A stretch of 64,000 bases of DNA, taken from Escherichia coli. GTDB taxonomy: Bacteria; Pseudomonadota; Gammaproteobacteria; Enterobacterales; Enterobacteriaceae. The first letter of the stretch is position 1, and every line of letters starts with the position of its first letter. The position numbers and the translations under genes are program-made. Shown here piece after piece: positions 21,535 to 27,926 of the stretch. The stretch lies in assembly GCF_050920415.1 (NCBI RefSeq), contig NZ_CP169309.1; one strand, written 5' to 3'. Under the pieces are notes generated by a model. That model searched no databases. It was not told where the DNA came from and saw only the letters and a list, made by a program, of their open reading frames with translations.

Positions 21535-22170
21535 TCAGATGTCAACTTTCTCTTTGTATTCACAAAGATCTTCAATAATACAAGAGCCACAGCGAGGCTT
21601 GCGGGCAATACAGGTATAACGCCCGTGCAGGATCAACCAATGGTGGCAGTCGACTTTAAACTCTGCCGGAACCACTTTCAGTAGCTTTTCTTCTACCTGT
21701 TCGACGTTTTTCCCCGGCGCAAATTGAGTACGATTACAAACGCGGAAAATGTGCGTGTCGACAGCAATAGTCGGCCAGCCGAATGCAGTGTTTAATACGA
21801 CGTTGGCTGTTTTACGACCTACACCAGGCAGGGCTTCAAGCGCAGCACGATCTTCCGGAACCTCGCCATTATGCTGTTCCAGTAAGATACGGCAGGTTTT
21901 GATGATATTTTCTGCTTTGCTGTTATAAAGCCCAATGGTTTTGATATAGGTTTTCACCCCTTCGACGCCCAGTTCAAGCATCGCTGCAGGCGTATTCGCT
22001 ACCGGGTAGAGTTTCGCCGTCGCCTTATTAACACTGACATCGGTCGCCTGAGCGGAAAGCAGTACGGCAATCAGCAATTCAAAAGGCGAACTGAAATTAA
22101 GCTCGGTGGTGGGATGAGGATTGTTCTCACGCAGGCGAGTGAGGATCTCCAGGCGTTTTGCTTTGTTCAT
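21535..22170 (-). CDS. nth: Endonuclease III (DNA glycosylase/AP lyase, [4Fe-4S])
   Basis: ORF track 211 aa; HhH motif and C-terminal Cys cluster (CIARKPRCGSC); last gene of rsx-nth operon. Confidence 0.95.
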   Translation of the reverse strand: MNKAKRLEILTRLRENNPHPTTELNFSSPFELLIAVLLSAQATDVSVNKATAKLYPVANTPAAMLELGVEGVKTYIKTIGLYNSKAENIIKTCRILLEQHNGEVPEDRAALEALPGVGRKTANVVLNTAFGWPTIAVDTHIFRVCNRTQFAPGKNVEQVEEKLLKVVPAEFKVDCHHWLILHGRYTCIARKPRCGSCIIEDLCEYKEKVDI

Positions 22171-22865
22171 CAGACATTCCCTGTTTCACCGTTTGGCAAT
22201 GCACGTTCGGCAGCTGCTTCAGCACGGCGCTTTTTCATTCTTTCATCAATCAGGTATTTCCCTGCCAGCATCAGTCCCAGGCCAATAAATGCACCTGGTG
22301 GCAGCATTGCCAGCAGGAAAGGGGAGTCGGTGTGGAAAATCTCCACGCGTAATACTTTGGCCCAGCTACCTAACAGCGCATCTGCACCGTCAAACAACGT
22401 GCCATTGCCGATAATTTCGCGTAGTGAACCCAGCACGAACATGGCACAGGTTGCGCCCATACCAATCGAAAAACCATCCAGTGCCGAAAGTGCCGGACCT
22501 TTTTTAGCAGCGAAGGCTTCAGCGCGCCCCACAACAATACAGTTAGTGACAATCAGCGGAATAAAAATCCCTAACGATTGATACAGACCAAAGGCGTAGG
22601 CGTTGATCAGCATCTGTACAGCGCTGACCACCGAGGCGATGATCATCACGTAAATGGGAATGCGGATCTCGGCTGGCGTCCAGTGACGCAGCGTCGAAAT
22701 GGTCAAGTTGGTCAGCGTCAGTACCAGCGTAGTCGCAAGTCCTAAACCCAGAGCGTTAGTGGCAGTGGACGTGACCGCCAATAGCGGACAGAGGCCGAGC
22801 AGCTGGACCAGCGCAGAGTTGTTTTTCCACAACCCCTGAACAATAACGTCTTTAATTTCGCTCAC
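22170..22865 (-). CDS. rsxE: Rnf/Rsx electron-transport complex subunit E
   Basis: ORF track 231 aa, polytopic membrane protein; operon position. Confidence 0.92.
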
Positions 22866-22868
22866 GCT

Positions 22869-24551: not shown

Positions 24552-26774
24552 TTAGTCCTCGTTTACAACCTTTTGCTGGGCGGCTTTTTTGGCCTGAACG
24601 CGGGCAATAGCCGCGGCAACTGCCGCTTTGCGCGGATCAACCTGTTCTTCTGGTACCGCATTAGCCTGTTGCTGTTCCAGCTTGCGTGCTTTGGCGCGGG
24701 CAATAGCCGCTTCGACGGCAGCTTTGCGCGGATCAACCTGTTCTTCTGGCTCCGCATTAGCCTGTTGCTGTTCCAGTTTGCGCGCTTTGGCACGGGCAAT
24801 AGCGGCTTCGACGGCAGCTTTGCGCGGATCGACCTGTTGTTCTGGTTCCGCATTAGCCTGTTGCTGTTCCAGCTTGCGTGCTTTGGCACGGGCAATAGCG
24901 GCTTCGACGGCGGCTTTGCGCGGATCGACCTGTTGTTCTGGTTCGGCATTAGCCTGTTGCTGTTCCAGCTTGCGTGCTTTGGCACGGGCAATCGCGGCTT
25001 CGACGGCGGATTTGCGCGGATCAACCTGTTCTTCTGGCTCCGCATTAGCCTGTTGCTGCTCCAGCTTGCGCGCTTTGGCGCGGGCGATAGCGGCTTCAAC
25101 TGCGGTTTTACGTGGATCAGCAACGGTTGCTGCGTCGTTAGTTTGCTGCAGTTCTGCCTGTTTCGCTCTGGCTTGCGCTTTACGGGCTTCCCGTGCTGCA
25201 ATAATTGCACTGTTATCCGGGCGTTCGCCCGCTTTAATCACAATAGGCTGTGTAGCCTGGGCCTGTTTCTCTTTCACCCGCGCCAGAGCGGCAGCAATCG
25301 CATCTTTATCTTTGGCTGCAGGTTGAACGGCTGCGCTCTTATGTCGTTCAAGGCGAGCCGCTTTTTCGCGCTCCAGACGAGCCTGGCGCGCTTCGAAACG
25401 CGCTTTGGCTTCTGCGGCGCGCTTTTCTTCCTGACGAATAGCCGCAATTTCAGCTTTTTCCTGACGGAAATATTGCACCAGGGGAATATTGCTCGGGCAA
25501 ACCCACGCGCAAGCCCCACATTCAATGCAGTCGGCAATGTTATGCGTGGTGGCTTTATCGTGTTGCTGACCTTTGCTGAACCAGTACAACTGTTGCGGCA
25601 AAAGATCCGCAGGGCAGGCGTCAGCACAGGCGCTACAACGGATGCAATTTTGTTCTTCCTGTGGTTCGCCAAGCTCATTGGCAGAGGGAGCCAACAGACA
25701 GTTGGTAATCTTTACGACCGGGACATCCAGCCATGGCAAGGTAAAGCCCATTAGCGGGCCGCCCATAATCACCATTTGATCGGCAGAGGGGCAGAATCCG
25801 GCATCATTCAATAAATGACGCACTGGCGTACCCAGCCGTGCCCAGACGTTGCCCGGGCGTGCGATTGCTTCGCCAGTCAGGGTCACGACACGCTCAGTAA
25901 TCGGTTCGCCATCGATAACGGCACGTTTCACTGCATAAGCAGTGCCGACGTTTTGCATTAATACGCCGATATCGGATGAACGCCCGCCATGTGGAACCTG
26001 CTTCCCGGTTAGAATGTAGGTTAATTGTTTAGCACCGCCAGAAGGATATTTGGTTGGAATCACCCGCAGAGAAATATCGTGAGAGTCCGCCAGCACCGCG
26101 CGCAGCATGGAAATCGCCTGCGGTTTGTTATCTTCAATGCCGATAAGAATTTCGCGTGGCTGCAGAATATGCGCAAGAATGCGAATACCCTCTACGACCT
26201 GAGCCGCGCAATCCTGCATCAAACGGTCATCGGCGGTAATGTACGGCTCGCACTCAGCAGCGTTGATAATCAACGTTTCAATCTTATCTCCGCCGCCCTG
26301 CAATTTAACGCCTGTCGGGAATCCCGCACCACCCAGCCCGGCAACACCAAACTGATGAATGCGCTCGATTAACTCTTCGCGACTGCGAGAGCGATAATCG
26401 TCCCAGCCGTCGCGCGGGATCCAGCAGTCTTCGCCATCGGCATCAATAATCACGCTTAATTCAGCTAAAGCTGAAGGATGAGCCGTAGAGTGGGGCGCAA
26501 TAGCCGTAACGGTACCCGAGGTGGGCGCGTGAACTGGCAGCATTTTGCCGCGTCCACGGGTAAGCGGCTGGCCGCGCAATACTTTATCACCGACGCTAAC
26601 GCACAATTCACCTTCAGCGCCAATATGTTGTTTCAGTGGTATGACAAAACGCTGCGCCAGTGGTACCTGGCGCAGGGGCGTACCGTTGGACTGGGTTTTC
26701 ATCTCCGGTGGATGGATGCCGCCGTTGAAATCCCAGATTTTATTTTTTCTGAATGCAGAGAATAACTTAAGCAT
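24552..26774 (-). CDS. rsxC: Rnf/Rsx complex subunit C (NADH-binding Fe-S subunit, repeat-rich C-terminus)
   Basis: ORF track 740 aa; two 4Fe-4S ferredoxin Cys clusters; C-terminus has about six 32-aa repeats ([29 protein letters not shown].). Confidence 0.93.
24602..25120. repeat. Intragenic tandem array of about 5.4 copies of a 96-bp unit inside rsxC
   Basis: Unit starts at 24626, 24722, 24818, 24914 and 25010 (period 96 bp, in-frame, a few substitutions per copy); encodes the repeated 32-aa Ala/Lys/Gln-rich segment of RsxC. Confidence 0.9.
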
Positions 26775-27345
26775 GGTGTTCCACGGGAATGATACGCACG
26801 GGAATGGTGTTCAGATCCCATTTCCAGGAGTCAGGTGTTTCTGCAACCGGTTGCAACGAGATGCAGTGCGTCGGGCACGGATCAACACATAAATTGCAGC
26901 CCGTACAGAGATCACTCATTACCGTATGCATGGCGCGGGTAGCACCAACGATGGCGTCTACCGGACACGCCTGAATACATTTAGTGCAGCCAATACAGTT
27001 ATTTTCATCAATAAACGCCACCATCCGCGCAGGCGTTAGCTCTTGCGCTTCGCCATCCAGCGGCTGTGGCTCGACATTAAGCAACTCAGCAATTTTTAGC
27101 ATCACAGCTTCGCCACCTGGGGCGCAGCGGTTAATTTTTTCACCGTTACAGCTGATGGCTTCCGCGTAGGGGCGACAGCCGGGATAACCGCATTGACCAC
27201 ACTGGCTCTGCGGTAAGATTTCGTCAATTTTCTCAACGACCGGATCGTCTTCCACCGCAAAACGGCGGGAGGCATAACCCAGAATGGCGCCAAACGCCAG
27301 GCCCAGCAGGCTCACGGCGGCAACGGCAATCCAGATAGCATTCAT
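26767..27345 (-). CDS. rsxB: Rnf/Rsx complex subunit B (ferredoxin-like)
   Basis: ORF track 192 aa; multiple CxxCxxC motifs. Confidence 0.93.
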
Positions 27346-27926
27346 TACAACTTCACCAAACCACTAAAGCCCATAAAGGCCAGAGACATAAGACCTGCGG
27401 TAATTAACGCAATGGCATTACCGCGAAAAGGTGCCGGGACATCAGCCACAGCAAGGCGTTCGCGGATGGCGGCGAAGAGCACCATCACCAGCGAGAAACC
27501 GACAGCGGCGGAAAAACCGTACAGCGCCGACTGCAAGAAATTGTGCCCGAGATTGATATTCAGCAACGCCACGCCGAGCACTGCACAGTTGGTGGTGATA
27601 AGCGGCAAAAAAATCCCCAGCAGACGGTAAAGCACCGGGCTGGTTTTGCGCACCACCATCTCGGTGAACTGCACAACCACAGCAATTACCAGAATAAACG
27701 CCAGGGTGCGCAGGTAAATCAGATTAAGCGGGATCAAAATCCACGTATCGATAAGCCAGGCGCAAATAGACGCCAGCGTCATCACAAACGTTGTAGCCAG
27801 CCCCATGCCCATCGCGGTTTCCAGCTTTTTGGAAACCCCCATAAACGGACAGAGACCGAGAAACTTGACCAGTACAAAGTTATTGACCAGTACAGTTCCG
27901 ACAAACAGTAACAGGTAGTCAGTCAT
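27345..27926 (-). CDS. rsxA: Rnf/Rsx complex subunit A
   Basis: ORF track 193 aa, polytopic; first gene of operon. Confidence 0.93.

Follow-up and report, generated by a model that had tools for sequence, protein, structure and literature searches.

The rsxABCDGE-nth operon in a 64-kb stretch of the Escherichia coli chromosome: junction spacing, operon boundaries and terminator-like hairpins

The stretch considered here, hereafter the window, is a segment of 64,000 nucleotides (nt) from Escherichia coli (NCBI RefSeq assembly GCF_050920415.1, contig NZ_CP169309.1), and all coordinates given below are positions within it. Seven genes, rsxA, rsxB, rsxC, rsxD, rsxG, rsxE and nth, follow one another in this order on one strand, with no gene between them according to both the open reading frames (ORFs) and the annotation. 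They very probably correspond to the known E. coli rsxABCDGE-nth transcription unit in an intact form. The genes are listed with the length of their product in amino acids (aa) and their score with the NCBIfam model:

27345..27926, minus strand: rsxA, 193 aa; NF003481, 364.7 bits (cut-off 240)
26767..27345, minus strand: rsxB, 192 aa; 339.3 bits (cut-off 203)
24552..26774, minus strand: rsxC, 740 aa; 868.8 bits (cut-off 345)
23493..24551, minus strand: rsxD, 352 aa; 634 bits (cut-off 415)
22869..23489, minus strand: rsxG, 206 aa; 360.8 bits (cut-off 178)
22170..22865, minus strand: rsxE, 231 aa, GTG start; 365.9 bits (cut-off 184)
21535..22170, minus strand: nth, endonuclease III, 211 aa; NF007978, 486.3 bits (cut-off 405), residues 1-211

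Each gene is a single ORF and all seven products exceed the curated NCBIfam cut-offs over essentially their full length, RsxE being scored with a subfamily-type model as no equivalog exists for this subunit. The six Rsx subunits are also above the cut-offs of the rnfA, B, C, D, G and E subfamily models (TIGR01943 to TIGR01948), and rsx subunits match the nqrE, nqrB and nqrD models below those models' own cut-offs. RsxB carries two CX2CX2CX3C motifs and an N-terminal CGQCGYPGC, RsxC carries two CX2CX2CX3C motifs, and Nth has at residue 187 a C-terminal [4Fe-4S] ligand motif, CX6CX2CX5C (CIARKPRCGSCIIEDLC). A first-pass annotation, made from the sequence without database searches, had seen no sign of disruption; the seven full-length ORFs, the cut-offs passed and the iron-sulphur (Fe-S) cysteine motifs in place bear this out. 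The same annotation assigned the whole of rsxABCDGE-nth to 22170-27926, an interval that does contain rsxA to rsxE but ends at the start of nth, so that nth itself (22170..21535) lies outside. An Rfam search in E-value mode returned no RNA family match in 20500-29500.

A 6.7-kb stretch of this locus matches the E. coli chromosome in 5424 of 5426 complete genomes. The 64-kb window is nearly identical to bases 2418061-2482060 of NZ_CP169399.1, with six base differences in total, and the RefSeq annotation of that genome can thus be transferred one to one. The only differences are at 5254, 11002, 27298, 28037, 53462 and 54609; two of them fall in the region studied, at 27298 (rsxB) and 28037 (ydgK). 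As for K-12, its unit (b1627-b1633) has the same seven genes with the same order, strand relationship, lengths and six junction distances, and differs only in allelic variation: nucleotide identity is 98.1%, with 128 substitutions in 6603 nt (1.9%) and no indels. Five of the six junction windows are base-identical to those of K-12, and the sixth, rsxE/nth, has one synonymous change (nth codon 3) that leaves the overlap the same.

The junctions were read from the ORF list, directly on the minus strand, by script and from the RefSeq annotation (PGAP, the NCBI pipeline) of the near-identical genome, all of which were concordant. From the 5' to the 3' end of the sense strand they are:

rsxA/rsxB: 1-bp overlap, TAATG
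rsxB/rsxC: 8-bp overlap, ATGCTTAA
rsxC/rsxD: 0 bp, TAAATG, the start abutting the stop
rsxD/rsxG: gap of +3 bp, TAAaccATG
rsxG/rsxE: gap of +3 bp, TAAagcGTG
rsxE/nth: 1-bp overlap, TGATG

The distances (-1, -8, 0, +3, +3 and -1, negative values denoting overlaps) are exactly those claimed by the first-pass annotation, and are the same in the PGAP annotation and in K-12 MG1655. Junctions of 3 bp or less account for 6/6 in the operon vs 5/35 of the other same-strand neighbour pairs of the window (Fisher p = 1e-4). These five other tight pairs (ydhK/J, ydhJ/I, uidA/B, rstB/A and mdtJ/I) are all functionally related neighbours in same-strand runs. The rsx-nth spacing is thus unusual for neighbouring genes in general, normal inside operons and not special to rsx.

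The conservation of this arrangement was assessed on 80 Enterobacterales loci obtained from one Nth scan of species-representative genomes, ranging from Escherichia to Proteus, Xenorhabdus, Yersinia, Pantoea and Dickeya; distances between genes were measured to the first in-frame stop. In all 80 loci, nth directly follows rsxE. The first two junctions are almost invariant, rsxA/rsxB being -1 in 60/63 loci and rsxB/rsxC being -8 in 59/62, and rsxC/rsxD is 0 in 48/62. The rsxD/rsxG distance is mostly +9 across loci (+3 in E. coli), and rsxG/rsxE takes the values -8, -4, +2 or +3. The rsxE and nth genes overlap in 65 of the 80 loci, by 1 bp in 36 and by 4 bp in 29. Two loci, L024 and L029 in our numbering, display frameshift-like patterns; we put these down to noise from assembly or pseudogenes and left them uninterpreted.

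The 5' end of the operon carries a candidate promoter and a hairpin:

27978..27983, minus strand: candidate -35 element TTGTCG of the rsxA promoter (consensus scan)
27955..27960, minus strand: candidate -10 element GATAAT of the rsxA promoter (consensus scan), followed by a GC-rich AGGCGGC
27942..27981, minus strand: hairpin GUCGCCUG...UAGGCGGC followed by U6, between ydgK and rsxA (found by folding)

The promoter sequence (TTGTCG-17-GATAAT, 27983..27955) is identical in K-12. For the other species, it was counted in the 62 loci with an intact rsxA upstream region; loci without an adjacent rsxB were excluded, as these loci are cut short upstream and their "rsxA" match is the paralogue rsxE. 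GATAAT was found in 54 of the 62; in 51 of these it lies 27-31 nt upstream of the ATG. Each of the 54 also has a TTGNNN exactly 17 bp upstream of GATAAT, and in 42 this hexamer is TTGTCG. AGGCGGC follows GATAAT in 31 loci; it resembles the discriminators of stringently controlled promoters and might act as one.

The hairpin between ydgK and rsxA, whose loop exceeds 8 nt and which was therefore not called by the terminator scan, looks like a terminator of ydgK. It overlaps the conserved rsxA promoter, with the -35 element in its 5' arm and the -10 element in its loop and 3' arm. Judged from the sequence, this combination of a conserved promoter and an overlapping hairpin provides the operon with a well-defined 5' boundary. 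It should be emphasized that consensus matches in 21000-29000 occur at the frequency seen in shuffled sequences (8 vs 7.6 for promoter-like sites and 12 vs 11.2 for terminator-like ones). The consensus scan found no promoter-like site on the sense strand from rsxA to the end of rsxE.

Gifford and Wallace reportedly described nth in 2000 as the terminal gene of an operon. RegulonDB, in the form in which it is cited in PMC5021804, lists rsxABCDGE-nth as one operon. Furthermore, all seven genes are derepressed in an rpoS mutant of EDL933, with fold values of 4 to 26 (PMC2907692). A search of the literature under the old names ydgL, ydgM and ydgQ gave nothing useful.

Taken with the conserved promoter, this literature points to a simple course of expression. 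Transcription would most likely start at the sigma-70 promoter directly upstream of rsxA (TTGTCG-17-GATAAT), a start site that implies a U-rich leader of roughly 20 nt, and would then give one mRNA of about 6.4 kb running through rsxA, B, C, D, G, E and nth. The overlaps and the gaps of 0-3 bp would allow a terminating ribosome to reach the next start codon; its hand-over by termination-reinitiation could thereby help to keep the synthesis of the subunits proportional. Direct initiation would also be possible, given some Shine-Dalgarno (SD) pairing and an open context at each start. The transcript would end at or near a short hairpin after nth that lacks a U-tract. The interpretation as a compact co-transcribed rsxABCDGE-nth operon is sound and already known.

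Several points weigh against the more specific parts of this reading, and the first of them concern translation. Pairing with the anti-SD is of weak to moderate strength, the extremes being -2.5 kcal/mol at rsxA, the start behind the leader, and -6.4 kcal/mol at rsxE. At the six internal starts the pairing to the 3' end of 16S rRNA spans -3.3 to -6.4 kcal/mol: it is weakest at rsxB (-3.8) and rsxC (-3.3), moderate at rsxD, rsxG, rsxE and nth (-4.5 to -6.4), and best at rsxE, followed by rsxD (-5.9) and nth (-5.1). The SD elements of the downstream cistrons sit within the upstream coding sequence. None of the seven start regions is more structured than its shuffled versions (z from -0.5 to +1.3), and z is above 0 at five of the six internal starts, which fold worse than shuffles. 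Occlusion of ribosome-binding sites as the means of enforcing coupling was rejected on this ground, excess structure being present at none of the start regions, and reinitiation is thus not required. Termination-reinitiation is geometrically possible at every junction, the spacing being what points to coupling; for rsxD, rsxG, rsxE and nth, independent initiation would account for the observations equally well.

Coupled cistrons with overlapping stop and start codons (of the TAATG/TGATG and ATGA types) are well known, as in trpE/D, trpB/A and many operons for membrane complexes. The rsx-nth operon resembles them by its two 1-bp overlaps, its 8-bp overlap and its gaps of 0-3 bp. It has no structure that would hide its ribosome-binding sites, and the likeness is one of junction geometry.

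The junctions could therefore also be read as mere genome streamlining within an operon, each cistron being initiated independently from its own SD element and coupling adding little to the subunit ratios. This is possible, if somewhat doubtful. SD pairing of some degree exists at all seven starts, the unstructured start regions leave nothing for an upstream ribosome to unmask, and the rsxD/rsxG and rsxG/rsxE spacings drift among genera (-8 to +22) while the genes are retained. However, the near-invariance of rsxA/rsxB and rsxB/rsxC in Enterobacterales and the frequent overlap of rsxE with nth speak against it. Moreover, SD pairing between the rRNA and the internal starts is weakest at the two junctions whose overlaps vary least, A/B and B/C, and reinitiation would be of most use there. 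This is the best indirect argument that hand-over of ribosomes matters at these two junctions.

The contiguity of the genes is a second matter. In all the loci sampled from Yersinia (4) and Serratia (7), a gene of 300-328 aa on the opposite strand is inserted between rsxC and rsxD, and its product is an AraC-family regulator (HTH_18 and GyrI-like):

4212-5198 of locus L052, minus strand: inserted regulator gene, Yersinia; also in the Yersinia loci L071, L080 and L082
Loci L048, L049, L053, L061, L062, L075 and L079: inserted regulator gene, Serratia

A split into rsxABC and rsxDGE-nth is thus viable, and the contiguity of all six rsx genes is not obligatory.

A third matter is termination inside the operon. 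Two elements of rsxC have to be considered together:

26644..26686, minus strand: intragenic hairpin and T-run, CTGCGCCAG-GTACCA-CTGGCGCAG, then CGTTTTGT
26703..26711, minus strand: codons 22-24 of rsxC, PPE (polyproline), a motif dependent on elongation factor P (EF-P), with a K-12 counterpart in PMC5021804

With -22.9 kcal/mol and z = -3.7, the hairpin (26686..26644) is the strongest terminator-like element on the sense strand of the region. Its extended stem begins 16 nt after PPE, as at the site published for K-12 (PMC5021804). Elgamal et al. (2016) found that this internal terminator of K-12 rsxC terminates in vitro only with NusA, and that RNA downstream of it is down 1.8-fold in a delta-efp strain (PMC5021804). 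The hairpin of the window is like this K-12 site, one of two in that study (narY being the other), by its position and core stem. It differs from it by 4 substitutions in 81 nt, with a 6-nt vs a 4-nt loop and a poorer T-run, and the terminator activity of the window allele is a prediction. The operon has a putative conditional internal terminator within rsxC. Continuous translation would mask the hairpin and T-run, which could terminate transcription when ribosomes lag.

A selected attenuator was considered and rejected. In stability the hairpin exceeds 95% of synonymous recodings, a marginal excess (5%). It follows the local peptide LRQVPLAQR, is gone where this peptide changes and is lost in most other genera. 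It reads as a largely incidental structure, normally masked by translation, and not as a conserved attenuator.

It could still be imagined that the operon is functionally segmented by this terminator, with or without unrecognised internal promoters, in such a way that rsxAB and rsxCDGE-nth are separately adjustable and nth is not simply tied to rsxA. The strength of the hairpin and T-run, its stability relative to synonymous recodings, the behaviour of the K-12 version in vitro and in the delta-efp strain, and the viable split of Yersinia and Serratia can all be cited for it. Nevertheless, the effect in vivo is small and seen only without EF-P, the T-run of the window allele is weaker than that of K-12, the hairpin tracks the local peptide, is lost in most other genera and exceeds recodings only marginally, the scan found no promoter-like site on the sense strand from rsxA to rsxE, and the seven genes shift in the same direction in the rpoS mutant. 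Segmentation is unlikely.

The first-pass annotation had allowed for a single hairpin terminator, located after nth. This has to be abandoned, since a stronger hairpin with a T-run lies within rsxC and a hairpin with U6 precedes rsxA. It had also named internal promoters or terminators separating the rsx genes from nth as what would speak against its reading; the terminator in rsxC, as assayed in K-12, partly fits this description, and no internal promoter-like site was found on the sense strand from rsxA to rsxE.

The 3' end of the operon is the last of the matters that weigh on this reading. The element concerned is the following:

21509..21528, minus strand: hairpin GGGGTAACACCGATTACCCC (GGGGUAA-CACCGA-UUACCCC), 6 nt after the nth stop; identical in K-12

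Its stem has 7-8 bp, of which 4 are G-C pairs. On the nth strand, the sequence after the hairpin is ATTGATAACC, with no U-run; the tail, AUUGAUAACC, has 3 U in 8, short of the U-tract of an intrinsic terminator. The T-run (TTTTCTTC) is on the plus strand, and the scan calls a terminator on that strand only. The hairpin terminator that the first-pass annotation placed after nth is therefore present as a hairpin but, with its T-run on the opposite strand, is non-canonical for nth. No canonical terminator was found on the sense strand anywhere in 20800..21535, i.e., across the spacer between nth and dtpA. Among the 80 related loci, just 21 have a canonical hairpin and T-run within 90 nt after nth. 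Outside Escherichia and its close relatives the sequence of the hairpin is not conserved; in many genera, a hairpin of different sequence stands immediately behind the nth stop. Entries for rsx or nth are absent from the supplements of the Term-seq study of Adams (2021) and of the SMRT-Cappable-seq study of Yan (2018).

As the hairpin lacks a U-tract, the 3' end would probably arise through weak intrinsic termination, through Rho acting within the untranslated spacer of 610 bp with subsequent trimming back to the hairpin, or through both. A quite plausible alternative, to which we give slightly less than even chances, is that the hairpin is no terminator of the operon at all: transcription would be ended by Rho in the spacer or read through to dtpA, the hairpin protecting the trimmed end, or else the hairpin would be a terminator of antisense (plus-strand) transcription. 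The position of the T-run, the poor sense tail, the lack of a canonical sense-strand terminator in 20800..21535 and the scarcity of canonical terminators in related loci, together with a sequence kept only in Escherichia and its close relatives, are in keeping with it. Against it, the recurrence of post-stop hairpins of differing sequence suggests that some function at the 3' end is under selection, the stem can be lengthened by the flanking A-tract (GAAGAAAAG) together with the downstream CUUUCUUU, and non-canonical terminators with interrupted U-tracts are known to work.

On the plus strand, no gene runs into the hairpin at 21509-21528, which could stop antisense transcription entering nth from the spacer. 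In this spacer (20925-21534, 610 bp) no gene is annotated, Rfam gave no match, and neither strand has a match to the promoter consensus. An ORF of 66 aa lies in it at 21407..21207 on the minus strand. The spacer is presumably the regulatory region or the leader of dtpA.

By family membership, the six rsx products are the subunits of an Rnf-type membrane oxidoreductase. The systems available for comparison are RnfABCDGE of Rhodobacter, Azotobacter and Vibrio, the structures from Clostridium tetanomorphum and Acetobacterium woodii, and the related Na+-NQR. Rsx shares with Rnf the six subunit families, the gene order, which is of the "rnfABCDGE type" (PMC5736913), and the ferredoxin-like CX2CX2CX3C motifs of RsxB and RsxC. 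As Rnf homologues form one multi-subunit membrane complex (PMC9588780), the locus of the window may, by analogy with structural work on these homologues, encode one complex with fixed subunit ratios and electron transfer. Unlike in other Rnf systems, the role assigned to the E. coli complex is the reduction of SoxR and not nitrogen fixation or energy conservation, Rsx being the established SoxR-reducing system (PMC12594620); it keeps the [2Fe-2S] sensor SoxR reduced. The E. coli operon also differs from other Rnf systems by the nth gene appended to it, which encodes the [4Fe-4S] DNA glycosylase endonuclease III.

Another difference from the Rnf model is the long repetitive C-terminal tail of RsxC, which extends past the rnfC subfamily match (this ends at residue 445). 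The tail corresponds to the following feature:

24601..25119, minus strand: 96-bp tandem repeat, 5.4 copies, 91% matching, encoding 32-aa repeats of the C-terminal tail of RsxC

The copy number of this repeat varies in E. coli. RsxC is 740 aa long both in the window and in K-12; in strain NQ3 it has 806 aa, and other E. coli strains align with rsxC spans that are 96 bp or 480 bp shorter. Across Enterobacterales the length of RsxC ranges from 591 to 1000 aa. In the complete genome of E. coli CFSAN004176 (locus L085, 1127-3927), the annotation gives a truncated rsxC and a frameshifted rsxD. Some 480 bp of the repeat region are absent there, perhaps through a genuine deletion, perhaps through misassembly of the repeats.

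The place of nth in this operon deserves a separate comment. Endonuclease III does not count as a subunit of Rnf, and there is no explanation for its inclusion in the operon (PMC4014512). Its position after rsxE in all the loci, and the overlap of the two genes in most of them, could reflect functional dependence rather than historical accident: the redox-active [4Fe-4S] enzyme would be made in fixed proportion to Rsx by hand-over from RsxE at the membrane, because Rsx would set or maintain the redox state of its cluster. This idea is highly improbable, and nothing in the present analysis supports a functional redox link between Rsx and the [4Fe-4S] cluster of endonuclease III.

As a textbook-style compact operon, already annotated and described in databases and literature, the locus is in itself of little import. 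The rsxABCDGE-nth locus can be used as a clean positive control for operon calling. The picture of its terminators is less simple than first assumed, with a conditional terminator in rsxC, a hairpin that resembles a ydgK terminator and overlaps the highly conserved rsxA promoter, and a non-canonical hairpin after nth. Finally, the conserved overlap of rsxE and nth is an unexplained association of an Fe-S redox complex with an Fe-S DNA repair enzyme. If it did reflect a relation between Rsx and the cluster of endonuclease III, this would be comparable to what Rsx is known to do for SoxR.

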